NCBI GenBank assembly: GCA_963676105.1
Contig: OY781039.1
Span: 1,710,001-1,742,000 of the forward strand
Source of the DNA: Erysipelotrichaceae bacterium
GTDB taxonomy: Bacteria; Bacillota_I; Bacilli_A; Erysipelotrichales; Erysipelotrichaceae
Reading direction: 5' to 3'
DNA length: 32,000 bases
In this document: positions 1,924-31,021 of the stretch, one piece after another
Layout: the number at the start of each line of letters is the position of its first letter
Numbering within the stretch: position 1 is the stretch's first letter
Notes under the pieces: model-generated
The model's database searches: none
Told to the model about the DNA's origin: nothing
What the model saw: the letters and a program-made list of their open reading frames with translations, nothing else
Made by a program: the position numbers and the translations under genes

Positions 1924-1934
1924 ACTGTTCCTTT

Positions 1935-6231: not shown

Positions 6232-6318
6232 AATAAGTCCACAAAAAGATGCACTTTTATACATTAAGCGTATTACTTTTAACCATAAATAACAACTTTT
6301 TAAAGCCTTAAATAAAGG

Positions 6319-8224: not shown

Positions 8225-8387
8225 ATATAGAATTTGAGAATTTAATTTATATAAATTGTTTGTTTAAAAAACTTATTCACATTCATTGTTTCTAGCTAAG
8301 TAAAAGTACTGTTATGCATAAATATCTCTATAGATAGTGAATAATATTATTAACAGGAACGTGTCTTATAGAAAGGGAGTTTATCGT

Positions 8388-11551: not shown

Positions 11552-11554
11552 TTT

Positions 11555-12385: not shown

Positions 12386-13119
12386 ACTATGAAAATGCCT
12401 TAAAGTTATCCTCTGATCAAGTCAGTCATTTATTGCTGGATGTCTTAAAGGATAAGAAATTATGCGATAGTATCATTGATGCTTCACTTAATCTATTAAA
12501 GTGCAATGTAGAAAATGATGATGAACTTCAAAAACGTAAAGTAGCGGTTTTAGATGCCTTAAAATTGATTTCCAAGAAGATTGATTTTAGAAATGAAAAA
12601 ACATTAATTATAGAAGTTATTCACACCTGGTATTTACATTTAGGTGAAAAATGCATTGAAGATCGAACAGTTAATACTCGATTACGAGAGTTAACCAGCA
12701 TTTATTTTGATGGCTGGAATATGTTGATGAATGCTGATCATAAAGTAAGAGTGGATAAACTTACCTCTAACTTTATGGTGAAATCGGAAGGCATTAGTAC
12801 TGAACGCAATCAATACATGGAAATGTTTGAATCACTGCCATTATCTGTGTTTATCTTAGATGAAAATGGTGACTTAGATTTATTAAACCTAAGAGCTGTT
12901 GAATTCTACAATAAACTTTTAGAACTACAATCATTCAATGATTTTGATAATAATTTATTGAAATTCTTAAATGTGAATGGTTTTTGTGATGATGTGAATA
13001 AAGTTGTATGTAATGGTGCATTGCCAGAATTTGAAAATGCTTATTTTGAATTGAATAAAAATAGTTGGAACTACAACAATAAAAAAGGTTACATCTTAAT
13101 TATCTACGTACATAAATAG
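12382..13119 (+). CDS. Hypothetical cytoplasmic protein: helical N-terminal half plus a PAS-like C-terminal segment
   Basis: 245-aa ORF with an ATGA overlap onto the upstream gene. The C-terminal ERNQYMEMFESLPLSVFILDENGDLDLLNLRAVEFYN resembles the start of a PAS fold. No catalytic motif was recognised. Confidence 0.6.
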   Translation: MNYENALKLSSDQVSHLLLDVLKDKKLCDSIIDASLNLLKCNVENDDELQKRKVAVLDALKLISKKIDFRNEKTLIIEVIHTWYLHLGEKCIEDRTVNTRLRELTSIYFDGWNMLMNADHKVRVDKLTSNFMVKSEGISTERNQYMEMFESLPLSVFILDENGDLDLLNLRAVEFYNKLLELQSFNDFDNNLLKFLNVNGFCDDVNKVVCNGALPEFENAYFELNKNSWNYNNKKGYILIIYVHK

Positions 13120-13132
13120 AAATCGGGGACGT

Positions 13133-14800
13133 ATGAATTTTAACTTGATTGAAGGATTAAATAATTTCGACCAGCAATGGCAAAACCTTTCTGAACTCAT
13201 AAATAAAAACATTGGACAACATAATTTTAAATGTCTAATTTTTTCGTCGAGCGCGGATGAATCTATCTTTCAATATACCAGTAATGATTCAAATGATTAC
13301 TCAGCCCTTAGAGAATATATAGAAGAATTTGGTTCAACTAAAAACGCAAGTACCACCGGCAAAGCGCATATTATCCAAGGTAAAGAAAAGAATATAATGA
13401 TTGCGATTGTCGCAAGCGTTTTTACCCATTCTCAACATGTTGAAGGGGCCTTTTATTTCGAATTTGAAAACAAAAATAAAGATTATATTCAGCTATTTAA
13501 CGATAGTTTGATTCCTTTGAATTTATATTCTCTAACATATTGGATACAAAGAGAAATTGAAGTCTATGAAAATCTCTTTTATACCATTGATTTATTTACA
13601 GAGCTTATCGCAAAAAGAGATCGATTTATGCCTTATCACATGAGTAATGTGGCTAATCGAAGTATGTTGTTGGCAAATCGTTTAAATCTAAGTCGACGAG
13701 ATCGTTTCTTGCTTTATATTGCGGCACTTTTACATGATATCGGCAAGATAGATATTGATGAGAGAATCATCAATAAACCTGGACGTTTAACCGAAGAAGA
13801 ATACGAAACAATGAAAGATCATCCACGTAAAGGTTATGATATAACTTGGGCTGAACTTCATGGGATAAAATATTTAGAAGAAGTACCAGAAATCATTCTT
13901 CATCATCATGAGCGTTATGATGGTAAAGGTTATCCAGATCAACTAAGTGCTAATGATATTCCTTATTTAAGCCGAGTTTTATCGATTGCAGATACCGTTG
14001 ATGCGATGATTTCAGTACGCTCTTATAAAAATCAATTTACTAAACAAGAAATTATTAATGAACTGGATAAATTCTCGGGCTCACAATTTGATCCTGAAAT
14101 TGCTAAAGTTATGATTGATGTTTTAAGTGAAACCAATGAAAAGAGCGTAAACAATCAATTAAAAGTTGCGAACTTTATCCCTAAAGCGTCAATCGTATTA
14201 GAAAAAGAAAATGGTGAAACTTCTCACTTTATGGGTAATATTGTCATCAATGAAAATATTGGTAAGTTTATCATTCACCAAAAAGAAGGTAAATCTTTAG
14301 AAAAGACTTATCATAATTTCGCCTACATTGGCTACTTTATGTATGGTGAGTTTGTACAATACCGTGCTAAAGTTCAATACACTTTAAAAAACCAAATTAT
14401 TCTTTCAAGTTTTATTTATCAACCACTTGATCGATTAGCCTTTACTGCCTATTATTCCAATGCCTATGTATCAACTAGTGATAGTTATGAAGAAGTTCAA
14501 ATCATTAAATTAGGAGCACGTAACTTAATTATTGAAATTGACATTACCTCATCTTTATATATCAAGGAACACCAAAAATTGAATTTATACTTTAGTACTC
14601 ATAAAGATTTCTTCATGTCAGATTATAATGTCATTTATGAAGTGGTTCGTAAGTACATCTTTGATAATCGAATTATCATTCATTTAGAATCCAAAGATAT
14701 TGCGCCACGAATTCGTGATGAAATTATGCGGACCATCTTTGATAAACAACTTAATGATGCGAATATTCAACCAAATGTTGCGATTGGACAAAAAAACTGA
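13133..14800 (+). CDS. HD-GYP domain c-di-GMP phosphodiesterase with an N-terminal GAF-like region and an about 200-aa C-terminal extension of unknown function
   Basis: HD-GYP signature: HMSNVANRS...LLHDIGKIDI...MKDHPRKGYDI...ILHHHERYDGKGYPDQL...LSIADTVDAMISVRSYK. Confidence 0.88.
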   Translation: MNFNLIEGLNNFDQQWQNLSELINKNIGQHNFKCLIFSSSADESIFQYTSNDSNDYSALREYIEEFGSTKNASTTGKAHIIQGKEKNIMIAIVASVFTHSQHVEGAFYFEFENKNKDYIQLFNDSLIPLNLYSLTYWIQREIEVYENLFYTIDLFTELIAKRDRFMPYHMSNVANRSMLLANRLNLSRRDRFLLYIAALLHDIGKIDIDERIINKPGRLTEEEYETMKDHPRKGYDITWAELHGIKYLEEVPEIILHHHERYDGKGYPDQLSANDIPYLSRVLSIADTVDAMISVRSYKNQFTKQEIINELDKFSGSQFDPEIAKVMIDVLSETNEKSVNNQLKVANFIPKASIVLEKENGETSHFMGNIVINENIGKFIIHQKEGKSLEKTYHNFAYIGYFMYGEFVQYRAKVQYTLKNQIILSSFIYQPLDRLAFTAYYSNAYVSTSDSYEEVQIIKLGARNLIIEIDITSSLYIKEHQKLNLYFSTHKDFFMSDYNVIYEVVRKYIFDNRIIIHLESKDIAPRIRDEIMRTIFDKQLNDANIQPNVAIGQKN

Positions 14801-18500: not shown

Positions 18501-21500
18501 GTGGTCAATGAAAGTAATTTAAAGAAACAAGCACGTAAAGAGTTATCTCAATACGAAGGTAATGCGAGGAATTATATTCGAGCTTTAGAAGAACTTCAAG
18601 CTGGATTGTGGTTTTGGGATATCAAAAATAATGTGACGAATGTGAATGACCGTTGGGCACAAAATTTAGGTTATACAAAAGAAGAAATCAGAAAACTTTG
18701 TCCTGACACCTGTAAAGATTTAGTTCATAGTGATGATCAAGAATTGTTTAGGTCAAATATAAACGCATGTAAAGATAGAAAACTCGATCACTTTAAAGTG
18801 ACCTTAAGAATGTTGCATAAAAATGGCAACTATATTCTGATGGAGAATATGGTTCAAGTTTTAGAAAAAGATGAGAGTGGATATCCATCTGTTCTTTTCG
18901 CGACCCAAATAGATGTCAGTGAATATTTTGAACGTGAACAAAAAACGGTTATACAAAAAACATCGGATATTATTGAACTAGCACCTTTTCCCATTGTCAT
19001 ATCTGATATGGAAACAAATACCCTTGTTTATGCGAATAAGCGGGCTAAGGATGCCTATGCCTTAGGTGAGGATCAAGGGATAGGATCACCAAGTGTAGAT
19101 TTTTATGTTCATAAAGACGACCGGTCACAATTTATTTCTATATTGACAACAGAGGGTTCTGTCTATGATTTTGAAGCGGAACTCTATGATTATCAAAAAA
19201 ATAAATATTGGGCATTGATGTCTGCGACCATTATTGATTTTCATGGGAAACCAAGTATTGTCGTGTCTATTAATGATATCAATAAGCGTAAACACGCAGA
19301 ATTAGAGCTTGCAGAAGAGAAGAAAAACTATCAATTATTAACAGAATCCATCTCTGATGTTATTTGGGTTTATGACTTAGAAAATCAAAAACTTGAATAC
19401 ATGAGTCCATCTATTACAGCGATTACTGGATTTACACCCGAAGAGACAATGACTTTGCCGACGGCAGCTCTTATTACAGAAGAAGTTCGTATAGGCTTTA
19501 TGGCAAATTTAGAGAATGCCGCTAAACAGTTTAAGCGTAATGGAAATATTCCCGTCGAAATTACACAAGAAGTTAAACTACTCAAAAAAGATGGAACAGA
19601 TGTTTGGACTGAACATGTCTTAAAAATTGTTAAAGACAAAGATGATCAAATACGCGTTATTGGAGTTACTCGAAACATTGAGGATCGTAAACGTACAGAA
19701 AACTATATTGAATATTTAAACACTCATGATCAATTAACAGGACTTTTAAATAAGACAGCTTTTAGATTATTTGAGCTTGAGTATTCAAGTATGGACAATG
19801 ATTACGCTATTTTCTTTATAGACTTAGATAATTTTGGGGTGGTTAATGATGCGATAGGACATAGAGAAGGTGATTCTATCATCGTTAATATTGCCTCTAA
19901 AATTGTTAAGAGTATGGCTGATCGTGGTCGTGTATTTAGGTATGAAGGTGATGAATTTGTCATCTTTATCCCAAGTGCAAACAAAGATTATCTACAGGCA
20001 ATTTCTTCAGATCTTGTTCGCTTTATTACGACTGAAGCTCGTGTAAAAGACAATGCCTATATTTTAACCGCAAGTATTGGGATTGCGGTGGGTGAAGAAA
20101 ACTTAACCATGGATCGCGTGTTAAACAATGCCGCATCTGCCTTGCACATCGCAAAACACATACGTAATAGCGTGCGCTTTTATACACCGAATATGGATGA
20201 TTTACAACGACGTGAAGTTATCTTAGAAAAAGATTTACCCAACGCCTTATTAAAAAATCAATTAAAGGTTTTCTATCAACCAATCTATGATGTAAGAAAA
20301 GGGACTATTTCTCAATTTGAAGCCCTATTAAGGTGGGAACATCCAGAACTTGGTTTAGTTGGTCCAAATGAATTTATTTCAATTGCGGAAAAGAATAATT
20401 ATATAATCCCCATTACTGAGTGGGTTTATAGAGAAGTATTAACTTGTATTAAAAACTTTGAAAATAGTGGTCATGAAAACATCAGCATGTCTGTTAACTT
20501 TTCAATTCTTGCCTTTACCAATCGAGTCGATAATTTAATTAATTTTGTAAATTACGCACATGAAGAATCAGGGGTTGCGCCATCTAAGATATTTGTTGAA
20601 ATCACAGAATCAATGGTTGTCCAAAACTCAAAAGATTTAATTCGTGCGATTAGTGAACTTAAAGCTTTAGGTATTCGTTTTGAATTAGATGATTTTGGGA
20701 CAGGTTACTCAACCTTTGGTAAAATCAAAGAACTACCTTTAAATGTCGCGAAAATTGATCGTTCCCTCATTAACAATGTTGATACCGACAAAAAGGCATT
20801 TATGATTGTGGATACCATGATTTCTGTCTTGCATAGTTTAGAACTGGAAGTTGTGATTGAAGGGGTTGAAACAGTCAAACAATTTGAAACCTTGGTTGCG
20901 TTAGCACCAGATTATATTCAAGGTTTCCTTTTCAGCAAGCCTGTACCTAGCGGTGAAACATTAAGCTATTTAAATAAAACAAATGAATTTGATGGTTTAC
21001 CTGTGGTCTATCGTTTTAATGAGAATAACACTGCAGTTCATTGGCGTGAAGAATGGAATTGTGGGATTGAAGAAATTGATCAGGAGCACCGTGAACTTTA
21101 TAAAGCGGTAAACTATATTGATTTATATAAAAATGATTTAGCACATCAAGATGAATTGAACGATGACTTTTATCAAAAGTTGATTGATCGCATTGCCCAA
21201 CATTTTGATGATGAGGAAGAAATATTAAAAGAACATAAGTTTCCACAACTTGATAAACATTCAGATATTCATCAAGAACTTTTAGATAAGGTCACAGCTT
21301 TGTTTGAAGCACAGAAAAAAGATAGAACCAAGAAGGATGAGTTTATCCATTTCTTAACGGAAAGCTACATTGTGGATCATATTTTATACGATGATTCTTT
21401 GTTTATTCGCTTTTTAAACGATCCTGAAGCACCACTCACAAATCTTATTTTTGTGGATGATTATAAAGACCCAGTGGATTCAAATGATGCAGGACATTAT

Positions 21501-23219
21501 CGAAGAAAACTTAAAGAAAGTGTAGATTTACAGAATTTACTATCTGAAATATCACATAGTTTAATGATGGTTAATGCACAAAATTTTGATGATAAGGTAA
21601 ATGATGCGCTTAAACGTTGTGCTAATTTTGTAAAGGCAGATCGCGCTTATATTTTTACCTATGATTTTGATAAAAATACGACAAGTAATACCCATGAATA
21701 TTGTCAGGAAAATATCAGTCCTGAAATTGATAATTTACAGGATGTACCACTTGAATATGTGCCAGACTGGGTTCAATCACATTTACATGGTAAGACTATT
21801 AATATTTATGATGTAAAAGCACTACCTAAAGATAGTGGTTTAAGAGAACTTTTAGAGCCTCAGGGAATTTGGAGTATACTCACAACGCCAATGATGATTA
21901 ATGATATTCCGTTTGGATTTATGGGTTTTGATTCAGTTATGAAACATCATTTATACACGGATTATGAACGAGCCATCTTAAGTGAAATCAGTAATGTCAT
22001 TTTGGTAGCTTTTAAAAGAACCGCTGATCAAATTAAGTTAGATAAAGAAAAAGATTTATATTCCAATACACTCTTATCACTAAATGAGGGGATTATCGTT
22101 ATAAATGAGCATTATGTTGTCGAGTTCTGTAATAAGGCTGCCAAGGATATTTTTGGAATTCACGTAAGTTCATTAAAAGGCATTAATATCAATGAAGGAT
22201 TTAAAATCTATGATTTTATGACTCAGAAACAAATTAATATTGATTGGGATGTGCTTAATAAAAACAAAGCCTTTAATTTCCCAGGAAACTGTTTTGTGAA
22301 AACACCAAAAGGTGAAATTCGTTTTATTGAAGGTAGTATTAAAATCAATGAAGATCATGGTTATTTAATAAACTTTAGAGATATTAGTTTTAAAAAAGAA
22401 AATGAACGATTAGCTGAGGCTTTCTTTACCATGAATTCCGATTTATTCTTTGTCGGTAACTTTGATGGTTTCTTTGAACGTGTCAACAATCGATTTAAAG
22501 ATGTTTTAGGTTATAGTTCTCAAGATTTAAATGGATCTAAAATACTTGATACTGTACACCCTGATGATGTTGAAATGACACAAAATGAAATAGTGAATTT
22601 AGCTAAGGGCAAAGTTGTTAATAATTTTGTCGTTAGATCAGTCGGAAAAGATGGAAAAATTAGAAGTATTGAGTGGAGTGCTCAAAAAGGTATATCTAAT
22701 CAATTCTATGCGACCGGTCGTGATGTGACAGATCGTATTGAAGTTGATGCAGAAAAAGAATACTTAACTTATCATGACGTGATGACTGATCTATATAATC
22801 GCAGATATATTGAAGATGTGTTTAAACGTTTTGATTTAGATGAATCAAGCTTACCATTGTCGATTATTAGTTGTGATGTAGATCATCTCAAAACAATTAA
22901 TGATACACATGGTCACGCAATTGGAGATGAGGCAATTCTTGAAGCTTCTCGCATATTAAGACATAATTGTCGTCCAACTGATATTGTTGCGCGCTATGGT
23001 GGGGATGAATTTATGATTATTCTTCCAAATACAAAAGCTGTGTATGCGCAAAAAATTGTTGATCGTATTCATGAACATAAATCAATGACATCAAATAAAG
23101 TTGAAGTGACTTTATCAGCTGGAACATCAACACGAAATAGTTTTGAAGTTGGAATGGATGAAACAATCCGTAGTGCAGATGCACATATGTACCGAAATAA
23201 ACGCGCAAAAGTGAAATAA
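18501..23219 (+). CDS. 1572-aa multidomain c-di-GMP signalling protein: PAS x3, degenerate GGDEF (EGDEF), EAL, hemerythrin-like, GAF, PAS x2, GGDEF (with I-site)
   Basis: Motifs located in the nucleotide sequence are listed here.
- First cyclase-like domain: HDQLTGL at 19725 and YEGDEF at 19941-19958.
- EAL domain: EAL (QFEALLRW) at 20319-20327, plus VEITES, ELDDFGTGYS, KIDRS, EGVET and QGFLFSKP.
- Hemerythrin ligand set at 21036-21410: IDQEH, HFDDE, HSDIH, DHILYDD.
- GAF region: FVKADRAYIFTYD...GFMGFDSV.
- Terminal cyclase: RPTD at 22971-22982, five residues before GGDEF at 22998-23012.
The start is a GTG with a weak ribosome binding site. Confidence 0.9.
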   Translation: MVNESNLKKQARKELSQYEGNARNYIRALEELQAGLWFWDIKNNVTNVNDRWAQNLGYTKEEIRKLCPDTCKDLVHSDDQELFRSNINACKDRKLDHFKVTLRMLHKNGNYILMENMVQVLEKDESGYPSVLFATQIDVSEYFEREQKTVIQKTSDIIELAPFPIVISDMETNTLVYANKRAKDAYALGEDQGIGSPSVDFYVHKDDRSQFISILTTEGSVYDFEAELYDYQKNKYWALMSATIIDFHGKPSIVVSINDINKRKHAELELAEEKKNYQLLTESISDVIWVYDLENQKLEYMSPSITAITGFTPEETMTLPTAALITEEVRIGFMANLENAAKQFKRNGNIPVEITQEVKLLKKDGTDVWTEHVLKIVKDKDDQIRVIGVTRNIEDRKRTENYIEYLNTHDQLTGLLNKTAFRLFELEYSSMDNDYAIFFIDLDNFGVVNDAIGHREGDSIIVNIASKIVKSMADRGRVFRYEGDEFVIFIPSANKDYLQAISSDLVRFITTEARVKDNAYILTASIGIAVGEENLTMDRVLNNAASALHIAKHIRNSVRFYTPNMDDLQRREVILEKDLPNALLKNQLKVFYQPIYDVRKGTISQFEALLRWEHPELGLVGPNEFISIAEKNNYIIPITEWVYREVLTCIKNFENSGHENISMSVNFSILAFTNRVDNLINFVNYAHEESGVAPSKIFVEITESMVVQNSKDLIRAISELKALGIRFELDDFGTGYSTFGKIKELPLNVAKIDRSLINNVDTDKKAFMIVDTMISVLHSLELEVVIEGVETVKQFETLVALAPDYIQGFLFSKPVPSGETLSYLNKTNEFDGLPVVYRFNENNTAVHWREEWNCGIEEIDQEHRELYKAVNYIDLYKNDLAHQDELNDDFYQKLIDRIAQHFDDEEEILKEHKFPQLDKHSDIHQELLDKVTALFEAQKKDRTKKDEFIHFLTESYIVDHILYDDSLFIRFLNDPEAPLTNLIFVDDYKDPVDSNDAGHYRRKLKESVDLQNLLSEISHSLMMVNAQNFDDKVNDALKRCANFVKADRAYIFTYDFDKNTTSNTHEYCQENISPEIDNLQDVPLEYVPDWVQSHLHGKTINIYDVKALPKDSGLRELLEPQGIWSILTTPMMINDIPFGFMGFDSVMKHHLYTDYERAILSEISNVILVAFKRTADQIKLDKEKDLYSNTLLSLNEGIIVINEHYVVEFCNKAAKDIFGIHVSSLKGININEGFKIYDFMTQKQINIDWDVLNKNKAFNFPGNCFVKTPKGEIRFIEGSIKINEDHGYLINFRDISFKKENERLAEAFFTMNSDLFFVGNFDGFFERVNNRFKDVLGYSSQDLNGSKILDTVHPDDVEMTQNEIVNLAKGKVVNNFVVRSVGKDGKIRSIEWSAQKGISNQFYATGRDVTDRIEVDAEKEYLTYHDVMTDLYNRRYIEDVFKRFDLDESSLPLSIISCDVDHLKTINDTHGHAIGDEAILEASRILRHNCRPTDIVARYGGDEFMIILPNTKAVYAQKIVDRIHEHKSMTSNKVEVTLSAGTSTRNSFEVGMDETIRSADAHMYRNKRAKVK

Positions 23220-23300: not shown

Positions 23301-24461
23301 ATGAGTGATAAAAGAGTTCTTATACCCTTTGTATTGATTACGGCTTCTACGTTTTTTCTAAGTATTGCATTACAGATGAGTTTACCGAGTTTTTCGGTTT
23401 ATCTAAACTCTCTAGATTTCCCATTAGCTTATATCGGCATGGTCTCATTGTCAGTGGCATTTGCGGCCATGTTTTTTAGACCTGTGTCTGCCTATTTAAA
23501 TAAAAAGATTGGATCTGTTGAAACCGCAATGTTAGGTGCAATCCTTTATAGTGTTGCCTTTTTAATTTTAATTCTAACTAAATATATACCTTTAGTTGTT
23601 TTTGCCCGAGTACTACAAGGGATTGGGATGGGTTTAGGTGTCACTGTTTTAGGTGGTATGATTGCGGTCATTATGCCGGATGAAGAACTTCTAAAAGGGA
23701 TGAATATCTATTCCTTGTTTGCCGCATCCACAGGAGCGATTGGCCCTTATATTGGAATGTTTTTAATTTTTGGTGATGATTTTAATCCATTGTTTATATC
23801 AGCATTGGCTGCATCTATCTTAGGTTTTCTTATTTTAGTTTATTTACATTTTAAAGTTCATTTACCAATGCCTGAAGACATCCATACTCAAAAAAGTGGT
23901 GTACCAATATGGAAAAGTAGTGCTCTATTTCCAGCCATCTCTGGTCATTTTTTAGCGATGGTCAATGCGGCCATTGTATCCTATATATCTTTATATGCCT
24001 TTGAGATTGGGATTGATAATGTAGGATTCTACTTCTTATTAAACTTTGTAGGTTTACTCATTTCACGTGTTGCCCTTCAACAAATGATTGTGCGTATGAG
24101 TTTAAGTAGTATCTTTCTAATCATGGGCTTTGGCTTTGGTGCTGTACTCTTCTCACTTACTTTATTTGATTCAGTTTTTGTATGGTCTATTATTTCTATC
24201 TTTAATGGCTTCTTCTTTAACTTTAGTTTTACTCTCATTAATACAATGGCACTTAAACGCGTTCCAATTTCCGATAAAACAGCTGCCAATGCATTTCTAT
24301 TTGTATGCTTAGATTTTGGTTTCTTCTTAGGTGGAATTTTATGGGGTCAAGTCGGTGATGCATTCTCACTTCAAAATATCTTTATCCTTGCCGGAGTTAT
24401 GATCATCATTACCCAAAGTATAAGTGCCTTTGTGATAAATCGAAAAAAGATTGAATTCTAA
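23301..24461 (+). CDS. Major facilitator superfamily transporter
   Basis: 386 aa with about 12 hydrophobic segments. An MFS-type loop motif lies between TM2 and TM3 (FFRPVSAYLNKKIGS). Substrate unknown. Confidence 0.75.
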   Translation: MSDKRVLIPFVLITASTFFLSIALQMSLPSFSVYLNSLDFPLAYIGMVSLSVAFAAMFFRPVSAYLNKKIGSVETAMLGAILYSVAFLILILTKYIPLVVFARVLQGIGMGLGVTVLGGMIAVIMPDEELLKGMNIYSLFAASTGAIGPYIGMFLIFGDDFNPLFISALAASILGFLILVYLHFKVHLPMPEDIHTQKSGVPIWKSSALFPAISGHFLAMVNAAIVSYISLYAFEIGIDNVGFYFLLNFVGLLISRVALQQMIVRMSLSSIFLIMGFGFGAVLFSLTLFDSVFVWSIISIFNGFFFNFSFTLINTMALKRVPISDKTAANAFLFVCLDFGFFLGGILWGQVGDAFSLQNIFILAGVMIIITQSISAFVINRKKIEF

Positions 24462-24537
24462 GCTAGTCATAATTAAAGAAATCATAAATTAAGTCCGTTA
24501 TACTTTGTGTAGCGGATTTTTATTTAGGAGGAACAAT

Positions 24538-25032
24538 ATGAGTTTCTATGATATTAGTGTCAGAAAAGTAAATCAAAATAAAGTATCCTTAAGCGAATAT
24601 AAAGGGAAAGCCCTACTTATTTTTAATAGTGCAAGTGCCTGTGGTTTTACACCGCAATATGAAGGACTTCAAAGATTATATGATAAGTATAAGGATAAAG
24701 GTTTGGAAGTTTTAGACTTTCCGTGTAATCAGTTTGGTAATCAAGCACCTGGCACAGATAGTGAACAAGCGCAATTTTGTCAGCTAAACTACAAAACAAA
24801 TTTTGAAACATTTGCCAAAGTTAAAGTGAATGGTAAAGAAACTGATCCATTATTTAAATATTTGAAAGATCATACCCCAAAACCTAAAGGCATAGGTGCT
24901 GTAATTCCTAAGTTAATTAAATGGAATTTTACTAAATTCTTAGTCGATCAAAATGGAAATGTTATTAATCGATACGAACCAACGACAACCCCTGAAGAGA
25001 TTGAAAAAGATATTGAAACCTTATTAATGTAA
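24538..25032 (+). CDS. gpx: Glutathione peroxidase family protein
   Basis: FYDISV...LSEYKGKALLIFNSASACGFTPQYEGLQRLY...VLDFPCNQFGNQAPG...IKWNFTKFLVD are the canonical Gpx catalytic Cys, NQFG and WNF motifs. The ATG at 24538 follows AGGAGG. Confidence 0.92.
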   Translation: MSFYDISVRKVNQNKVSLSEYKGKALLIFNSASACGFTPQYEGLQRLYDKYKDKGLEVLDFPCNQFGNQAPGTDSEQAQFCQLNYKTNFETFAKVKVNGKETDPLFKYLKDHTPKPKGIGAVIPKLIKWNFTKFLVDQNGNVINRYEPTTTPEEIEKDIETLLM

Positions 25033-25117
25033 AGATTTCTTAATAAATTGGTATATCGATATGAATCGATAATAAAATTAGGTAGAATAAGCGTGTATAA
25101 AAACGAGGTAAACAAAA

Positions 25118-25543
25118 ATGGTCAAAGTATTATTCGTATGTATTCATAACTCAGCTCGATCACAAATGGCAGAAGCCTATTTAAACAAAATGGGTGAAGG
25201 CAAATTCATCGCTGAATCAGCAGGTTTGGAAGCAGGCACAATGAATCCTGTTGTCGTTAAAGCGATGGCTGAAGAAGGTTATGATTTATCCAATAACTCA
25301 TGTGACTCAGTCTTTGACTTCCACAAAGAAGGTCGTAAGTATGATTTAGTGGTTAAAGTTTGTGATCAAATCAATGGTGAGAGATGTCCAATCTTCCCAG
25401 GAACGAAGGCAACCATGAACTGGAATCTTCAAGATCCATCAGGTTTAGATGGTGACGAAGAGGCTAAACTACAACGAACACGTGAGATTAGAGATCAAAT
25501 CAAAGTTCGTGTTCAAAATTTAATCGAAGAATTCGGTGACTAA
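25118..25543 (+). CDS. arsC: Low-molecular-weight phosphatase fold, thioredoxin-coupled arsenate reductase (ArsC) type
   Basis: P-loop VLFVCIHNSARSQMAE (CX5R-S) plus the Cys82/Cys90 pair (VKVCDQINGERCP), which aligns with the redox Cys pair of Gram-positive ArsC. No arsR or arsB lies nearby, so the physiological substrate is uncertain. Confidence 0.75.
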   Translation: MVKVLFVCIHNSARSQMAEAYLNKMGEGKFIAESAGLEAGTMNPVVVKAMAEEGYDLSNNSCDSVFDFHKEGRKYDLVVKVCDQINGERCPIFPGTKATMNWNLQDPSGLDGDEEAKLQRTREIRDQIKVRVQNLIEEFGD

Positions 25544-25568
25544 GATATCCTAGGATATCTTTTTTTTG
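25543..25568 (+). terminator. Rho-independent terminator after arsC
   Basis: Perfect 18-nt palindrome AGATATCCTAGGATATCT followed by a T8 run. Confidence 0.8.
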
Positions 25569-25652
25569 TTTTACTTGCGTTATCTATATTTAATACTTTT
25601 GTAACATTTAAAGATTAGACTTAAGCACGTAGTAGATAGGGAGGATTACTTT

Positions 25653-27122
25653 ATGTATCTATTTAATCGTGCGTTTGCCTATGTAAGAAAACAAAAAGCG
25701 AAGACTGCTTTGCTTTTAGTTTTGTTCTTTATTATCGCAAACATTGTTTTAGCTGGTCTCTCAATTATGAGTGCAACAGCTACGGCAACAGAATTAACTC
25801 GTCAAGAGATTGGCGCAGATGTCGTTTATGCAACAAACTCATCTCAAATCAATATTGATTATCGTAATGGTTTATTAGATGAGAACACAGATCGTGACAC
25901 ATTGATTGGTTTACCAACAGTCGCGAATGCAGATTTATTACTCGGTTCTGAATATATTGAATCAGTAGATTATGTCACAAGCTATGAAGCATTTACAGAT
26001 GACACAATCACACCTTATATTTATGAAACAACTGAAACAACAGAAACTTCAACAGGAGGTGGGGCAAGCAAAGTGGTCCTAGGTTCCTATGAAGAGAGTG
26101 GTGATGTAAGTTTTAGAACATTCAGCACTTCAGAACCATCAGACTTCACAGATGAACTAGCTTCTTTAGTTGAAGGACGTTATGCATCTCAACAAGAAAT
26201 TGAACAAGGTGCATATGTTGTATTAATTAATACAGTCCTTGCAGATCTAAATGGTTTAAGAATTGGTGATACCTTAACACTAACTCCAACCATGGAAGGC
26301 TATAATACAGTCGCTGTTGATTATGAAGTTATTGGGATTTATGAATTATTAGAAGTTGAAGATGATCGTACAACGAGCTCATTAACCACTTCTCTATTAG
26401 GACAAAATAGACTCTATACACCATTTAATACTTTTGAATCTTTAGGTTATTCACAAGTAGAACTCGATGAAATTCTATTAGATAAAGCGGTTATCAAATT
26501 AGATGATCCAATGAACATTGAAGCCTATATGGCATCCATTGATGGATTAATCGATTTACAATATGGTTCAATTTCCGCAAATGATGCAGTTTATGAACAA
26601 TTAGCGGGTCCAATTGAATCACTTGGCGAACTTAGTTCTATCTTAGTTTGGATCGTTGTTATTGCTGGTGCATCTATTCTTTCATTAATCACAGCGCTAA
26701 CGATTAACCAACGTAAAAATGAAATTGGTATCTTACTCGCGATTGGTGAAAGTAAAATGAAGATTGTAAGTCAATTCGTAGTTGAAGTTGTCACAATCGC
26801 AATCATAGCCTTTACCTTATCGGTATTCTCAGGGCTAAGAATTGGTTCAACAATTACTGAACAAACTCTCGCCTCATTTGAGAGTGATACAGAAACCACT
26901 GAAGTTGTATCAAGTGGTGGCGGCGGCGGTGGTGGCCGTAATAGTACATCCACTGTCAGTGCAGAAGATATTGAACCAGTTGAAGTAGATGTTACATTCA
27001 GTGCCATTGTACTTGTAGAGTTCTTTGCGGCAGGTATCTTATTATCAATTATTTCAGTCGCAATCCCTGCACTTTATGTCACACGTTTTAACCCTAAACA
27101 AATATTAACGAATAACGGATAA
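25653..27122 (+). CDS. ABC transporter permease, FtsX/MacB type (4 TM with a large extracytoplasmic domain)
   Basis: TM1 (TALLLVLFFIIANIVLAGLSIM) is followed by an extracytoplasmic domain of roughly 280 aa and then an FtsX-like 3-TM bundle (ILVWIVVIAG..., EIGILLAIGESKMKIVSQFVVE..., FFAAGILLSIISVAIPALYVTRFNPKQIL). An unusual acidic/Gly7 insert lies between the last two TMs. GGGAGG ribosome binding site. Confidence 0.88.
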   Translation: MYLFNRAFAYVRKQKAKTALLLVLFFIIANIVLAGLSIMSATATATELTRQEIGADVVYATNSSQINIDYRNGLLDENTDRDTLIGLPTVANADLLLGSEYIESVDYVTSYEAFTDDTITPYIYETTETTETSTGGGASKVVLGSYEESGDVSFRTFSTSEPSDFTDELASLVEGRYASQQEIEQGAYVVLINTVLADLNGLRIGDTLTLTPTMEGYNTVAVDYEVIGIYELLEVEDDRTTSSLTTSLLGQNRLYTPFNTFESLGYSQVELDEILLDKAVIKLDDPMNIEAYMASIDGLIDLQYGSISANDAVYEQLAGPIESLGELSSILVWIVVIAGASILSLITALTINQRKNEIGILLAIGESKMKIVSQFVVEVVTIAIIAFTLSVFSGLRIGSTITEQTLASFESDTETTEVVSSGGGGGGGRNSTSTVSAEDIEPVEVDVTFSAIVLVEFFAAGILLSIISVAIPALYVTRFNPKQILTNNG

Positions 27123-27134
27123 GGAGCCAGAAAT

Positions 27135-27821
27135 ATGTCAATCTTAAAATTAAACAATATTACTTATGGTTACATTGATGGTAACCGTAAACGTACAATC
27201 TTAGATGATTTATCTTATACATTTGAAAAAGGTAAATTCTATAGTATCTTAGGTCCATCAGGATCTGGGAAAACCACCTTATTATCTTTAATGGGTGCCT
27301 TAGAAAAAACTCAAGGTGGAAGCATTGAATTTGAAGGTAAGAAGTTAGAAGATATTGGACTAACCAAATATCGCCGTAATAATCAAGCGATTGTTTTCCA
27401 ACAATTTAACTTAATTCCTTACATGACAGCTCTACAAAATGTTGAGAATGTCATGCATATTACAGAAAACGAACTACCAAAAGATAAAACAAAAACAGCT
27501 TTAAATCTTCTTAATACATTTGGAATTGTTGAGTCTAAAGCTAAACGTTCAATCAATCAATTGTCTGGTGGTGAACAACAACGTGTTGCGATCGCACGAG
27601 CACTCGCAACAGGTGTTGGTTTAATCTTAGCGGATGAACCAACAGGTAACTTAGATACAGCGACTCAACAAGAGATTGTTGATATCTTTAGAAATTTGGC
27701 AACAGAGTATGAAGTGTGTGTTATTGTCGTTACCCACTCAGATGAAGTTGCGAAAATGAGTGATGTCCAATTACGTCTTAAAGACGGTAAGTTACATGAC
27801 ATTACGGGGACGTTCAAATGA
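27135..27821 (+). CDS. ABC transporter ATP-binding protein (MacB/LolD-like)
   Basis: Walker [11 protein letters not shown]-loop, signature [15 protein letters not shown], Walker [13 protein letters not shown] and the H-loop VTHS. Confidence 0.95.
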
Positions 27822-29245
27822 GTAAGTTTCTAGATTCAATTAACGACAAAGAAGAAGTTAAAAACGAAAGTTTTCAAAAAGAACAATTCCAAGAAATTAA
27901 ACCGGATCGTACCAAGTACTATATAATAGCCGCTATTGCGGCTGTTGTACTTATCGCTTCATACTTCCTTTTAAATCAAAAGATTGAAGTCACCAATATG
28001 GTGGGATGGAATGTTAGTGATGCACGTACTTGGGCAAGTACCAATGATTTAAATATCGTAGTACACGAGATCTATGATGATAGTGATGTGGGAGAAGTTG
28101 TTTCTCAAAACATCTTAGAAGGTGAAAGTGTCAGCGCAAATTCAAGTATTGAACTTGAAGTATCTTTAGGTTTTGATCCAGAAGAAGTGATTGTACTTCC
28201 TACGTTCGATGAAACATGGACTAAGACAAAAGTAATTACTTGGTTAGATGAGAATGGTATTACAAACTTCACATTTATTAATGTAGAAGATGAAACAAAA
28301 ACAAGCGGAACCGTTATTGGTTTTGATACACCTGAAACAGTATCTGATTATACACGTGAGCAAGCGATTGAATTTGAAGTTACCATCTTACCAGCTGAAG
28401 TTGAAATTGTAGTAGCTGACTTCTTAAACTACACAGTAGCGCAAATTGATGCTTGGGCTGCAGATAATGATGTAAAAGTCTATTATGCAGAAGGCTATAG
28501 CGATACGACGGCTACTGGTAAAGTTTTAACCCAATCCATTGATGATGGTGAAATTATGAACCCAGGTGATTCTATCACTGTTACTCTATCAATTGGACCA
28601 GCTATAAAAATGGTTAACTTTACAAACTATGATTCTACAGCTGCGACAAATTGGGCAAAAGATAATGGTATCGATATTACCATTATTAATGAATACCATG
28701 AAGATACCCCTGAAGATGTCGCCATCTGGCAATCTATTCCATGGGATACAGTTGTAGCTCAAGGGACTGATCTAACGATGTATTATTCTTTAGGTGATGA
28801 AGTCACCATTGGTTCATATGTTAATGGGTCAATCACAACTTTAGAATCATTTATTGAAGCGCAAAATGATATGAAAGCTGGATTAAGTTTGAATATCTCT
28901 TATAGTTACTCAGGGACTGTTGCAGAAAATAAAATTATTTCACAATCAGTTCGTGATGATCAAGTTCATATTGGTTCTACCATTGATGTTATCGTGTCAC
29001 TAGGTGATTTGGTAACAGTGCCAGATTTCACAGTCCTTACGTATGTAACGGATGGAGGTGGAGAAAAATCTGCTATCGGAACATATGATGAAATTACAAG
29101 TGAATGCGGCAGCACATTTGTATGTAAGATAGTGTTTGAAGATGGTGGAGAAACCTATGAAGCAGGTGATGTGATTTCGCAATCTCAAACTGCAGGAACA
29201 AACATTTCAGATTCAACAGTTATTGAAGTTAAAATTGCAGAATAA
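27818..29245 (+). CDS. Membrane-anchored extracytoplasmic protein with about six tandem PASTA-like repeats (no kinase or PBP domain)
   Basis: ATGA overlap with the ATPase gene. A single TM (YYIIAAIAAVVLIASYFLL) is followed by six units of roughly 65 aa. Each follows the pattern 'V.VP.f.g.t...a..w...ng......e..s....G.V..Q......v..gs.i.v..SlG', for example IEVTNMVGWNVSDARTWASTNDLNIVVHEIYDDSDVGEVVSQNILEGESVSANSSIELEVSLG. Confidence 0.7.
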   Translation: MSKFLDSINDKEEVKNESFQKEQFQEIKPDRTKYYIIAAIAAVVLIASYFLLNQKIEVTNMVGWNVSDARTWASTNDLNIVVHEIYDDSDVGEVVSQNILEGESVSANSSIELEVSLGFDPEEVIVLPTFDETWTKTKVITWLDENGITNFTFINVEDETKTSGTVIGFDTPETVSDYTREQAIEFEVTILPAEVEIVVADFLNYTVAQIDAWAADNDVKVYYAEGYSDTTATGKVLTQSIDDGEIMNPGDSITVTLSIGPAIKMVNFTNYDSTAATNWAKDNGIDITIINEYHEDTPEDVAIWQSIPWDTVVAQGTDLTMYYSLGDEVTIGSYVNGSITTLESFIEAQNDMKAGLSLNISYSYSGTVAENKIISQSVRDDQVHIGSTIDVIVSLGDLVTVPDFTVLTYVTDGGGEKSAIGTYDEITSECGSTFVCKIVFEDGGETYEAGDVISQSQTAGTNISDSTVIEVKIAE

Positions 29246-29253
29246 AATTCTAA

Positions 29254-29288
29254 AACCTTTATAGAAATCTATAAGGGTTTTTTCTTTT
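29254..29288 (+). terminator. Rho-independent terminator after the ABC-PASTA operon
   Basis: CCTTTATAG-AAAT-CTATAAGGG hairpin (one G-T pair) followed by TTTTTTC. Confidence 0.7.
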
Positions 29289-29368
29289 GTTTCTGTTTTG
29301 TGATAGAAATGTAACATTTGAAGCGTATTCTAAGCACTGTAGAAATACGTATGTTAGGAGAACACATT

Positions 29369-30052
29369 ATGAAATTAAAATTTGGAAGTATATTATTATT
29401 GATTGCACTCTTAGGGCTAAGTGCCTGTTCAAGTGAAACAGAAGAAGTCGCAAGTGATGATGAAAGCACAGTAGTAGAATCAGGTGGTGAAGATTCTGTG
29501 CCAAGTGATGAAACAACTGAGGAAGACCATGTTGCTGATCCTCAAGATGGTACAGGTGGTCAAGGGAATAAAGGTGGTAATAGTGCAGTAGAAATAGACT
29601 GGTCACTAGTTCCAGAACAAACCGTTTTCTTTGATGATGAGTACACAATTGGTGAAATGTTAGAATATGCCATTCAAGATGAATTTGCAGCCCGCCATGA
29701 GTATGAATTAATCATTTCTGAGTATGGTGAAATCTCACCGTTTGTATCTATTATGGCAGCTGAAGAAAGCCATATCGCAAGTTTAGAAACTGTCTATAAC
29801 AACAATGGCTATGTGATTCCACAAGATGAATCAGATACAAGAGTTGTATTACCAGCCAGTGTAACTGAAGCCTTAGAAACAGGTGTACAAGCAGAAGTGA
29901 ATAACATTGCCTTATATGAAGCCTTCTTAGAAACAGAAGATTTACCAGATGATATCCGTTCTGTATTTGAAATGTTGAAGGCTGGATCAGAAAGTCATCT
30001 TGAATCTTTCTTACAAGCACTACAAAGACAATCAACTGAAACAACCGAGTAA
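29369..30052 (+). CDS. Lipoprotein with a ferritin-like DUF2202 domain and an acidic low-complexity linker
   Basis: Lipobox MKLKFGSILLLIALLGLSA|C. The ATG at 29369 follows TAGGAG. The C-terminal AIQDEFAARHEYELII...AEESHIASLE...GVQAEVNNIALYE...GSESHLESF shows the paired E..H motifs of a ferritin-like four-helix bundle. Confidence 0.75.
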   Translation: MKLKFGSILLLIALLGLSACSSETEEVASDDESTVVESGGEDSVPSDETTEEDHVADPQDGTGGQGNKGGNSAVEIDWSLVPEQTVFFDDEYTIGEMLEYAIQDEFAARHEYELIISEYGEISPFVSIMAAEESHIASLETVYNNNGYVIPQDESDTRVVLPASVTEALETGVQAEVNNIALYEAFLETEDLPDDIRSVFEMLKAGSESHLESFLQALQRQSTETTE

Positions 30053-30070
30053 AATCGGTTTTTCATTTTA
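30043..30070 (+). terminator. Possible weak terminator after the DUF2202 gene
   Basis: AACCGA-GTAAAA-TCGGTT followed by TTTCATTTT. The stem is only 6 bp. Confidence 0.4.
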
Positions 30071-30083
30071 TTAATCATTCCTA

Positions 30084-30133
30084 TTGACAGATTAAAGAAT
30101 TGTAATTATTATAATATTATAATCATTACAATT
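30084..30133 (+). promoter_or_regulatory. Promoter (-35 TTGACA) overlapped by a 36-bp palindrome containing two Per/Fur-type 7-1-7 boxes
   Basis: TTGACA at 30084-30089. The palindrome at 30098-30133, AATTGTAATTATTATAATATTATAATCATTACAATT, differs from its reverse complement at one symmetric pair of positions. Box 1 TTGTAATTATTATAA (30100-30114) and box 2 TTATAATCATTACAA (30117-30131) each match the B. subtilis PerR-box consensus TTATAATNATTATAA at 13 of 14 specified positions. TATAAT hexamers lie inside the palindrome. Confidence 0.7.
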
Positions 30134-30149
30134 ATATGAAAGGAACAAA

Positions 30150-30548
30150 ATGAACTTTAAAGAAATTCTAATGAAACATGACATTCAACCATCAAACTAT
30201 CGAATTAAGGTTTTAGAATGTTTAAGTCATTATGAAGAACATCCAACAGCGGAAGAGCTCTATCAAAGTTTATCAGATGTTTTTCCAACGATATCAAAGA
30301 TGAGTGTCTATAACACAATCGAAGTTTTACTTAATGCTGGTCTAATTAAACGGATAACCATTGAAAACAATGAAGTACGTTATGACAGTATGTTAGAAAA
30401 CCATGGTCACTTTAAATGTGAATCCTGTGGAAAAGTATTTAACTTCGACATTGATATGGATCACTTACCATTTAAGGGTTTAGAGAACTTTGAGATTGAT
30501 AGTAAGGATGTGTACTTTAAAGGTATTTGTCCAGATTGTAATCATTAA
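30150..30548 (+). CDS. Fur-family metalloregulator, PerR-like
   Basis: Winged HTH (YRIKVLECLSH..HPTAEELYQSL...SKMSVYNTIEVL), the regulatory-site HGH, and the structural Zn site CESC...CPDC. The PerR call, rather than Fur or Zur, rests on the Per-box-like operator and the downstream dps. Confidence 0.8.
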   Translation: MNFKEILMKHDIQPSNYRIKVLECLSHYEEHPTAEELYQSLSDVFPTISKMSVYNTIEVLLNAGLIKRITIENNEVRYDSMLENHGHFKCESCGKVFNFDIDMDHLPFKGLENFEIDSKDVYFKGICPDCNH

Positions 30549-30583
30549 TTTAAATTTAAAGCGCAGTTTGAAAGGAGTACAGT

Positions 30584-31021
30584 ATGTACAAAAAATTATG
30601 TAAGTATTTAGCAAACCTTAACGTTCTTAACGTTAAACTTCACAACATTCATTGGAATGTCGTAGGACCTCAATTCATGAGTGTTCACAACTTCACAGAA
30701 GAAGCTTATGACACCCTATTTGGCTATTATGATGATGTAGCTGAAATCCTAAAAATGAGAGGACATTATCCTCACGCATCTCTTGCGAAATATCTTGAAG
30801 CGACAAGCATTAAAGAAATTGAATCAAAAGATATTTGTGTTGCAGACGCATTAAAATTGGTCAGTGATGACTTTGATGAAATGTTAGAATTAGCATTCAT
30901 TATCCGTCGTGAAGCAGATGAACAAGGTGATGTAACTTTAGTTTCGACCCTTGAGGATCAAATTGCTTATTACCAAAAAAATCTTTGGTTTATTAAATCA
31001 ATGTTAACTAAAAAAGCTTAG
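30584..31021 (+). CDS. dps: Dps (DNA-binding ferritin-like protein, mini-ferritin)
   Basis: LHNIHWNVVGPQFMSVHNFTEEAYDTLFGYYDDVAEIL carries the Dps ferroxidase-site residues (H..W..G..F...H...EE.Y and D..AE). Confidence 0.92.
   Translation: MYKKLCKYLANLNVLNVKLHNIHWNVVGPQFMSVHNFTEEAYDTLFGYYDDVAEILKMRGHYPHASLAKYLEATSIKEIESKDICVADALKLVSDDFDEMLELAFIIRREADEQGDVTLVSTLEDQIAYYQKNLWFIKSMLTKKA

Follow-up and report, generated by a model that had tools for sequence, protein, structure and literature searches.

A type VII ABC transporter pair encoded together with a six-unit PASTA protein: a gene trio conserved among Bacilli and a candidate accessory envelope module

The stretch of DNA analysed here (32,000 nucleotides, hereafter the window; positions 1,710,001 to 1,742,000 of contig OY781039.1, assembly GCA_963676105.1, from an Erysipelotrichaceae bacterium) has a G+C content of 33.9%. 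At positions 25653-29245 it contains three open reading frames (ORFs) on the same strand, with coordinates exactly as first reported. They encode a permease of the ATP-binding cassette (ABC) superfamily with a MacB-type extracytoplasmic domain, an ABC ATPase, and a protein of 475 amino acid residues (aa) that combines a single transmembrane (TM) helix with a chain of PASTA units. The original prediction, made from the nucleotide sequence alone, had proposed the PASTA protein as a cell-wall-sensing or cell-wall-tethering partner energized by the transporter. The features of the locus are the following, with the unit boundaries of the PASTA chain taken from an AlphaFold2 (AF2) model:

25542..25567, + strand: intrinsic-terminator-like hairpin upstream of the unit, AGATATCC-UAGG-GGATATCU followed by T8
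25568..25652, + strand: promoter and leader region, with the Shine-Dalgarno sequence GGGAGG 9 nucleotides (nt) before the permease ATG
25653..27122, + strand: MacB-fold permease gene, 489 aa (Pfam MacB_PCD and FtsX)
27135..27821, + strand: ABC ATPase gene, 228 aa (ABC_tran, motifs intact)
27818..29245, + strand: PASTA protein gene, 475 aa (PF03793), stop codon at 29243-29245
27818..27910, + strand: cytoplasmic tail of the PASTA protein, residues 1-31, predicted as disordered
27911..27976, + strand: single TM helix of the PASTA protein, approximately residues 32-53 (hydropathy, AF2)
27977..29245, + strand: predicted extracytoplasmic chain of six PASTA units (PF03793, AF2, Foldseek)
27977-28168, + strand: PASTA unit U1 (PF03793, E 1e-11)
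28169-28387, + strand: PASTA unit U2, no match to PF03793 and PASTA-like by predicted structure only
28388-28594, + strand: PASTA unit U3 (PF03793, E 4.6e-10)
28595-28792, + strand: PASTA unit U4 (PF03793, E 3.4e-06)
28793-29002, + strand: PASTA unit U5 (PF03793, E 5e-06)
29003-29242, + strand: PASTA unit U6 (PF03793, E 1.1e-04; marginal, 22.6 bits against a cut-off of 23.2)
29252..29291, + strand: intrinsic terminator downstream of the unit, with a 13-bp stem, a 4-nt loop and a T-rich tail, matched by a consensus scan

The start of the PASTA gene sits inside the stop of the ATPase gene (ATGA overlap, TCAAATGAGT). This overlap had been described in the original prediction, as had the four-TM FtsX/MacB-type permease, the ATPase and the single-TM protein of 475 aa, and all were recovered at the claimed coordinates. 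Both terminators said to bracket the unit are also present. The upstream hairpin (25542-25565 plus T-run) is modest, with -7.6 kcal/mol and a z-score of -2.6 in RNA folding against shuffles, and it was not flagged by the terminator consensus scan. The downstream terminator (29252-29281 plus T-run) is strong, with -13.5 kcal/mol and a z-score of -5.1, and none of 200 shuffles folded as well. The upstream hairpin reads as the end of the preceding LMWPc gene and would set the three-gene unit apart. In the region between hairpin and permease gene, the box TTTGTAACAT aligns with similar boxes of relatives. A scan for the sigma-70 consensus returned fewer sites than in shuffles and none in this promoter gap, and the region 24400-30300 contained no Rfam leader or riboswitch.

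The permease affiliates with the Pfam families MacB_PCD (PF12704; E 1e-09, 39.4 bits against a cut-off of 27) and FtsX (PF02687; E 8.8e-09, 35.9 bits against a cut-off of 25.5). Four hydrophobic segments were obtained from the hydropathy profile (approximately residues 14-45, 320-353, 368-398 and 443-480), and an extracytoplasmic MacB_PCD domain of ~270 aa lies between TM1 and TM2. The AF2 model (mean predicted local distance difference test, pLDDT, of 80) displays the MacB fold with long TM helices. Foldseek matches of this model were, in order, MacB (1e-15), Spr0695 of S. pneumoniae, LolCDE, HrtB, YtrEF, YbbAP and BceAB. The best TM-score was reached with YtrEF of B. subtilis (9o9x, 0.48/0.53), the YbbAP structure 9ge6 matched at 1.4e-07, and structures of BceAB were distant matches only (E 1e-06, TM-scores of 0.24-0.29). 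The isolated ectodomains of MacB, YknZ and LolE matched as well (3ftj, TMt 0.63; 5f9q, 0.59; 5udf). In a profile comparison with the PDB the closest protein was again MacB (E 2e-08), FtsX being marginal, and the best matches by sequence and Foldseek included 5gko, 5lil, 5xu1 and 5f9q. Two disordered loops rich in serine, threonine and glycine interrupt the permease at residues 128-147 (window 26034-26093) and 413-436 (window 26889-26960). The first belongs to the ectodomain and the second to the extracytoplasmic TM3-TM4 connection, which is normally short; a run of seven glycines is included. The positions of both loops are kept in all clades, also in a clade from the B. cereus group that lacks the PASTA gene. 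An insertion that tracks the PASTA partner was considered and rejected, as this partner-less clade has the same disordered loops and the same layout.

The ATPase is a member of ABC_tran (E 2e-32), and its motifs are all intact in the translation: Walker A GPSGSGKT, signature LSGGEQQR, Walker B ILADEPT and H-loop VTHS. It scored roughly equally against the NCBIfam models L_ocin_972, DevA, LolD, DarD and FtsE, in each case below the cut-off. Its best NCBIfam neighbors were the LolD, DevA, FtsE and MacB-NBD models, which assign it to the MacB/LolD/FtsE-like group by sequence. The cut-offs of the equivalog models were missed by a wide margin. The MacB model NF007826 requires 966 bits and gave 16.4 bits with the permease and 154 bits with the ATPase. 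FtsX_Gpos gave 17 bits against 225, FtsX_actino 21.6 against 250 and FtsE 157 against 264.85, and the models for LolC/E (TIGR02212) and LolD (TIGR02211) gave 21.7 bits against 362.45 and 176.2 against 307.75, respectively. Because every NCBIfam equivalog remained far below its cut-off, the pair is classified as a type VII (MacB-fold) ABC transporter outside the characterized subfamilies; of these, LolCE, FtsX, MacB, FtsE and LolD were scored with NCBIfam and YtrF was compared by structure.

The third protein has one TM segment (approximately residues 32-56 by hydropathy) and matched the PASTA family PF03793 in five stretches with an E-value of 1.3e-37 and 128 bits, against a cut-off of 23.2. 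With this match, the families PF03793, PF02687 and PF12704, which the original prediction had named for the unit, were all found above their cut-offs. The "about six repeats" read from the sequence correspond to six beta-alpha-beta-beta-beta units in the AF2 model (residues 55-116, 122-189, 197-258, 262-324, 328-394 and 398-474). The model was calculated with 22 homologs and has a mean pLDDT of 84.7; the units mostly score 80-96, residues 3-28 are disordered with values below 50, and the TM helix spans residues 32-52. In single-unit scoring, U1, U3, U4 and U5 exceed the Pfam cut-off. All 22 PDB matches that Foldseek returned with E ≤ 0.001 were PASTA domains of PrkC, PknB, PBP2x or PBP1, in agreement with a PASTA rather than an Ig-like or SPOR fold. 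The best fold match of the ectodomain was PrkC of S. aureus (4e-15), the best structural matches of the chain were 3py9, 3m9g, 2kui and 5e12, and sequence matches to the S. aureus PrkC ectodomain (3py9/3m9g) were obtained at ~5e-11. None of the families for kinases, penicillin-binding proteins (PBPs), transpeptidases, PBP dimerization domains or hydrolases was matched by the protein in Pfam and NCBIfam, as had been claimed for kinase, PBP and hydrolase modules.

Comparison of the protein with itself by BLASTP did not find the internal repeats, the units being too diverged. The six units share 21-35% identity with each other, and each shares on average 42-56% with the orthologous unit in 21 homologs. 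Because of this difference the units are regarded as old, individually constrained domains and not as a recent expansion. The cytoplasmic tail has, narrowly, the highest mean orthologous identity (58%, against 56% for U2, U3 and U5). It carries the conserved motif FL..(I/V)N....ESF..E.F..IKPD, of which the part FL..(I/V)N....ESF..E.F is near-invariant within the clade; residues L5 and E17 are invariant, and F4, S18, F19, E22 and F24 are near-invariant. Such a tail, conserved though predicted as disordered, is what would be expected of a linear docking motif. The NCBIfam model of Stk1-family kinases (NF033483) gave 109.7 bits against a cut-off of 450 and aligned only at model positions 322-563, which correspond to the juxtamembrane, TM and PASTA half of the kinase. 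The protein thus looks like the ectodomain of a PASTA kinase with a short tail in place of the kinase. A decayed kinase pseudogene was rejected as an explanation, since the form of 465-490 aa with the conserved tail is kept across dozens of clusters at 50% identity.

Near-full-length homologs of the PASTA protein numbered 23 (34-88% identity), all from metagenomes or metagenome-assembled genomes (MAGs), whose taxon labels are quoted as the depositors gave them. Two reference genomes, both titled Erysipelotrichaceae bacterium, carry the protein. The scan of reference genomes with the single protein returned no relative, the alignment-based genome scan returned two MAGs only, and the metagenome scan four loci only. 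Gene context was surveyed in 14 independent loci beside the window, reached mostly via look-ups of exact proteins and not amounting to a census. In the window and in these 14 loci the order permease-ATPase-PASTA is conserved on one strand, and the flanking genes are unrelated between loci. The claim that the arrangement would recur in relatives is therefore borne out far beyond close kin. The trio occurs in an Erysipelotrichaceae-labelled MAG (OY760660, locus L001), in two metagenome contigs (L002 and L004), in L010 (UBA4808), L011 and L012 and partially in L013. Three further loci, L016, L017 and L018, were reached from permease clades at 52%, 46% and 40% identity, respectively; the PASTA protein of L018 has 680 aa. 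In cultured Bacilli, the trio was confirmed in five cases: Ornithinibacillus (L005), Lactococcus paracarnosus (L019), Enterococcus crotali (L020), Salipaludibacillus agaradhaerens (L021) and E. raffinosus F162_2 (L023).

The overlap between ATPase stop and PASTA start is 4 or 8 nt in 10 of the 11 loci in which it was measured. Across 11 loci the distance matrices of the three proteins correlate with r of 0.86-0.97 (Mantel p ~2e-04), and the PASTA partner is the fastest-evolving of the three. Judged from these matrices, the three proteins co-diverge and are inherited as a block. Two cases mark the limits of this association. P0024, a PASTA-only protein of 669 aa with 28% identity, is not encoded beside ABC genes and adjoins Tex and a glucosaminidase, and in the B. 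cereus group a permease clade at ~30% identity comes with its ATPase but without a PASTA gene. In one genome of this partner-less clade (GCA_000290675.1, L015:5001-8310), the ABC pair adjoins a convergent gene of the class A/C-type beta-lactamase family, and a HAMP/HisKA kinase is located a few kb away. A relative of the trio in L014 (2497-7287, JDSF01000023.1) is frameshifted, with the permease in pieces of 90 and 385 aa and the PASTA protein in pieces of 105, 249 and 477 aa; the combined PASTA pieces would hold more than 10 units, and the locus is a pseudogene or an assembly error.

Profile searches widened the partner family considerably. Among 1.84 billion representatives at 50% identity, 886 proteins matched the PASTA-partner profile at E ≤ 1e-30. 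In cultured Bacilli the family was found in Oceanobacillus, Ornithinibacillus, Paucisalibacillus, Salipaludibacillus, Evansella, Halalkalibacter, Paraliobacillus, Aquibacillus, Enterococcus, Streptococcus and Lactococcus. The motif E(S/G/A)(F/Y)..(E/Q/D).(F/Y), located 10-17 residues before the TM helix, is present in 48 of the top 150 representatives. The lengths of these motif-bearing partners cluster at ~465-486, 665-686, 728-755 and ~800 aa, with one protein of 1019 aa. The steps are approximately multiples of one PASTA unit, so the length of the stalk appears to vary. In a clade of Bacillaceae and Lactobacillales the tail is acidic and longer, at 80-120 aa, and carries the related juxtamembrane motif E.EID..Y.KKR. 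Database names of the partners are generic ("PASTA domain-containing protein") or wrong ("serine/threonine-protein kinase"). Among the results of the same profile search (P0229-P0376) were also giant multi-PASTA proteins, which measure 1,000-3,346 aa and in which as many as 29 stretches were matched.

The unit combines a member of the type VII ABC superfamily with a member of the PASTA-domain superfamily, and by its sequence features it is none of MacAB, FtsEX, LolCDE, BceAB, a PASTA kinase or a class B PBP. Similar to MacAB-TolC, Spr0693-0694-0695 and YknXYZ, it has a four-TM FtsX-type domain in which TM1 and TM2 enclose a MacB_PCD ectodomain of the Porter/Sabre type, and its operon also encodes a third subunit that is extracytoplasmic and anchored at the N-terminus. 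In contrast to these pumps, that subunit is a PASTA chain and not a HlyD-family membrane-fusion protein (MFP); no member of the HlyD/MFP family was present among the products of the unit or of its flanks in the window and the annotated loci. The ATPase is a separate polypeptide, whereas that of MacB is fused, and the ~270-aa ectodomain carries the disordered S/T/G-rich insertions. Known Gram-positive MacAB-like operons place the adaptor gene first. The idea that the PASTA gene occupies the slot of an adaptor accordingly holds as a loose analogy only: the PASTA protein is the third subunit of the operon, and the order permease-ATPase-PASTA departs from that of adaptor-first operons.

Other type VII transporters share different parts of this anatomy. 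YtrEF, from the YtrBCDEF system of B. subtilis, is likewise a Gram-positive MacB-fold pair with a large ectodomain and gave the highest TM-score with the predicted permease model. Unlike the trio, YtrEF has no described PASTA partner, its operon additionally encodes a GntR-type repressor and another ABC pair that is not related, and phmmer found no match between the permease and 9o9x at E ≤ 1. The ytr operon is induced by antibiotics disturbing the lipid II cycle, and its overexpression thickens the wall (PMC8060467, PMC12772383). BceAB, which has been proposed to protect lipid II-cycle targets (PMC7038271), and YclHI and Listeria Lmo1505/1506, regulator-controlled MacB-type pairs of unknown substrate (PMC9545042), are Firmicutes FtsX-domain ABC transporters beside OmpR-type two-component systems (BceRS, YclJK and PieRS). 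This resemblance is confined to L018, L020 and L023, most trio loci having no adjacent two-component system, and no PASTA subunit is known from the three systems. BceB also differs in comprising 10 TM helices in one chain, against four in the 489 aa of the trio permease. YbbAP-TesA of E. coli is a type VII ABC transporter with a dedicated extracytoplasmic partner (PMC12646458), but TesA is a soluble lipid hydrolase, whereas the trio partner is predicted as a non-enzymatic, membrane-anchored PASTA chain, and YbbP is a duplicated permease of ~800 aa. LolCDE is set apart by the low scores of the trio with its equivalog models and by the monoderm lineage of the trio host. The PASTA chain itself shares its fold and the serial arrangement of units after a single TM helix with the ectodomains of PrkC/Stk1, PknB, StkP, PBP2x and PBP1. 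In contrast to PASTA kinases and class B PBPs, it has neither a kinase nor a transpeptidase, its cytoplasmic part being the conserved tail of 31 aa; it has six units, and up to ~11 or more in relatives, compared with 1-4 in those proteins; and it is encoded and co-inherited with an ABC transporter.

Several observations suggest an accessory module. It is patchily distributed, and in E. raffinosus it lies on a non-mobilizable megaplasmid of ~1 Mb, the only match in a plasmid search for the module. It is intact in strain F162_2. In three of the four E. raffinosus strains examined (L022, L024 and L025), a single deletion fuses a response regulator (at residue ~175) with the PASTA protein (at residue ~154), so that the kinase, the two ABC pairs and the N-terminus of the PASTA protein are lost. 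A copy of IS110 lies beside this deletion in L022. Together with the partner-less sister clade of the B. cereus group, the patchy distribution and the whole-module deletion make the module look accessory. Because of these features and of the MacB/YknZ-like ectodomain, the evidence points away from an FtsEX-like role in core morphogenesis and towards an accessory envelope module that is sometimes regulated by a two-component system. A known defence system was rejected, as the PADLOC matches were generic only (ABC-ATPase and PASTA-kinase PD-T4-6 models).

A regulator-kinase pair adjoins the trio in three loci. In the enterococci the trio ends a seven-gene cluster on one strand (L023:1048-8443; L020:1-6485), in the order OmpR-type regulator, histidine kinase of 365 aa, a second membrane protein of the MacB_PCD type together with its ATPase, permease, ATPase and PASTA protein. 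Between its two TM segments this kinase has a loop of ~50 low-complexity residues, and for this reason it shows no obvious folded sensor domain. In L018 an OmpR-type regulator and a kinase follow directly downstream of the trio. Phased direct repeats of 11 nt occur just upstream of a -10-like box in L017 (4940-4975), L012 (2725-2760), L004 (3795-3830) and the same region of L016, and also upstream of the permease gene in L002/L011; an example is TTTCGTCATAG/TTTCGTCATAA followed by GATATAAT. Such a layout is typical of promoters activated by OmpR/PhoB-type regulators, and an identity with WalR, PhoP, CiaR or SaeR is not claimed. The repeats were significant against shuffles in three of 13 loci (L004, L012 and L017), L001 not being among them, and were rejected as a general promoter feature.

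By analogy with the systems above, we propose that the MacB-fold motor and the PASTA chain constitute one envelope machine with a role in accessory envelope defence or sensing, and we assign this reading a probability of about 0.4. Defence or sensing is considered likelier than core morphogenesis because of the accessory, stress-module character of the unit. The engine, a type VII ABC transporter, would presumably comprise two permeases and two ATPases, with the bitopic PASTA protein made in fixed proportion to it through translational coupling. The PASTA protein would dock on the engine with both the TM helix and the cytoplasmic tail, which is conserved and predicted as disordered, and its six domains would project as a chain into the wall. 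There the chain may bind nascent or uncross-linked peptidoglycan or lipid II, as in PknB, PrkC, StkP and class B PBPs, or possibly a protein partner; PASTA domains are known to bind lipid II, peptidoglycan or muropeptides and also proteins (PMC6428115, PMC9426605, PMC7654742, PMC10434722). Through such binding the engine would be brought to where the wall is synthesized. Binding and hydrolysis of ATP in the cytoplasm would move the MacB-like ectodomain by mechanotransmission, acting at that site; type VII ABC transporters act via bound extracytoplasmic partners, for example in FtsEX-EnvC and YbbAP-TesA (PMC7668044, PMC12646458, PMC5985334). The most likely effect would be that wall precursors are dislodged or shielded from wall-active agents, an accessory defence comparable to that of YtrEF/BceAB. 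The adjacent histidine kinase of enterococci, which has no folded sensor domain, would receive a signal from the complex as well. Complex formation, ligand, coupling direction and physiological role are what we infer here, beside the observed anatomy, folds, synteny, co-inheritance, translational coupling, dispensability and lineage-specific two-component linkage.

A number of points weigh against this proposal. The permease stays under every curated NCBIfam cut-off, and its substrate class cannot be read by homology. Adjacent genes vary by locus and give no consistent functional hint, and in the window and most loci neither a two-component system nor a resistance gene is adjacent. The window's own promoter has no significant phased repeat. 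The co-divergence of the three proteins can be explained by linkage alone. The B. cereus-group permease clade (~30% identity) consists of permease and ATPase only. Some PASTA domains do not bind peptidoglycan. In one genome of this partner-less clade (GCA_000290675.1, L015:5001-8310), the ABC pair adjoins a convergent gene of the class A/C-type beta-lactamase family, and a HAMP/HisKA kinase is located a few kb away.

A bolder form of the proposal envisages a receptor architecture not recognized before, in which a PASTA ectodomain sensing wall precursors would signal to a mechanotransmitting ABC transporter in place of a Ser/Thr kinase, with coupling through the tail and, in some lineages, a relay to a sensor-less kinase. 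It would detect and counter attack on the lipid II cycle, and the number of units, from 6 to at least 11, would tune its reach through walls of differing thickness. We consider this version unlikely.

As an alternative, the motor could work as FtsEX does and drive the PASTA stalk inside-out, so that a hydrolase or synthase encoded elsewhere is recruited or activated and the unit acts as a morphogenetic regulator and not in defence, a view that in essence is that of the original prediction. Trio and FtsEX are both type VII ABC transporters, and in the FtsEX family (with EnvC, PcsB, CwlO plus SweCD, and RipC) the ATP-driven ectodomain acts on a peptidoglycan-related partner. FtsEX-EnvC, -PcsB, -CwlO and -RipC are thus precedents (PMC7668044, PMC6705773, PMC10694151), and binding between PASTA domains and proteins is known from StkP-LytB (PMC10434722) and PBP2B-DivIB (PMC7654742). 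Genes for wall enzymes occur near some loci, namely VanY in L005 and MupG, PAP2 and a polysaccharide deacetylase in L016, but no hydrolase gene is conserved beside the trio. Moreover, the ectodomain is of the MacB_PCD and not of the FtsX_ECD type, in line with the FtsX and FtsE scores far below the NCBIfam cut-offs; the partner has no coiled coil, hydrolase or LytM domain; and L004 has a separate gene for a genuine FtsX that contains FtsX_ECD. The patchy distribution of the trio and the loss of the module from three E. raffinosus strains mark it as dispensable, and an FtsEX-like function is accordingly judged unlikely.

In the opposite direction of signal flow, the PASTA chain could detect wall precursors or fragments outside the cell and gate the ATPase, and the transporter would then feed a sensor-less kinase in the style of BceAB-BceS. 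The alignment of the PASTA protein with the juxtamembrane-TM-PASTA half of the Stk1-family model is compatible with such an outside-in sensor, and the conserved cytoplasmic tail could be its output element. In enterococci the regulator and the 365-aa kinase with its short low-complexity loop are encoded upstream on the same strand, and in L018 a regulator and kinase are encoded directly downstream. The L018 kinase, however, has an ordinary extracellular domain of ~130 aa, and most loci, the window included, have no adjacent kinase. We regard this possibility as distinctly unlikely.

Export of a small molecule or peptide by the ABC pair, with the PASTA chain as a structural stand-in for adaptors such as YknX and Spr0693, would fit the nearest relatives by sequence and structure (MacB and Spr0695), the top scores of the ATPase with the models of a lactococcin-972-type bacteriocin exporter and of DevA, below cut-off as they were, and the quantized partner lengths (~470, 670, 735, 800 and 1019 aa), as if the stalk length were tuned. 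Such a pump is very unlikely, given that the unit contains no HlyD/MFP-like domain anywhere, that a linear PASTA chain has no known channel-forming oligomer, and that none of the loci examined has a bacteriocin or biosynthetic gene next to the trio. Equally hard to credit is mere co-transcription, in which the PASTA protein would be an independent wall-associated protein sharing an operon with an unrelated transporter: PASTA-only proteins such as P0024 and the partner-less pair of the B. cereus group speak for it, but adjacency, order and start-stop overlap persist at protein identities as low as 24-26%, in three orders of Bacilli and amid wholly different flanks, and the E. raffinosus deletion removes the genes together.

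The surroundings of the trio in the window comprise several further genes. Directly downstream (29318-31021) lie a lipoprotein with a weak match to DUF2202 (ferritin-like) and then Fur-like and Dps-like genes, whose L001 orthologs (L001:7570-9194) have the Pfam domains FUR and Ferritin. In the distant locus L004, the gene immediately preceding the trio (3093-3722) is DUF2202-like as well; this connection with iron and oxidative stress may be a coincidence or a loose link. Upstream, at 18501-23219, a cytoplasmic signalling protein of 1,572 aa is encoded, the L001 ortholog of which contains PAS, GGDEF, EAL, hemerythrin, PAS and second GGDEF domains. It is an unusually elaborate cyclic di-GMP enzyme with a hemerythrin insert that may sense O2 or NO. 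At 7151-9461, two paralogous lipoproteins (357 and 374 aa) that resemble each other over their whole length are encoded in tandem, and directly behind them (9448-14800) follow a histidine kinase, two receiver-domain proteins and a HD-GYP-like protein. The group has the appearance of an operon dedicated to sensing, in which the extracellular binding protein is duplicated. Lastly, two ORFs in overlapping frames at 3763-5483 resemble, in their translations, an IS3-family transposase (a helix-turn-helix part and then an integrase-core part). They lie inserted between genes like those of a type IV pilus or competence pseudopilus (736-3506 and 5830-6264), whose translations resemble a GspF/PilC-like membrane protein and prepilins of 523 and 144 aa.

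The trio thus appears to unite a known class of motor with a new class of partner. PASTA proteins as partners of MacB/FtsX-type transporters were not described in the 8 million full texts searched, which lay mostly outside subscription journals, and no paper linking the two was found there; the pairing is apparently unstudied, and the original prediction had likewise known of no characterization. The partners of type VII ABC transporters have so far been MFP adaptors, hydrolase activators of the EnvC/PcsB type, LolA and TesA, and a PASTA chain would add a new class. If the proposal is correct, it would represent a third output of PASTA domains beside kinases and PBPs, one that links recognition of wall precursors to ATP-driven mechanical work. 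YtrEF, YclHI and Lmo1505/1506 are without a mechanism, and a related system with a known wall-binding module would offer a tractable handle. The module is present in cultured Oceanobacillus, Salipaludibacillus, Enterococcus crotali, E. raffinosus and Lactococcus paracarnosus, and in E. raffinosus natural knock-outs exist beside an intact strain, so that the hypothesis is directly testable.

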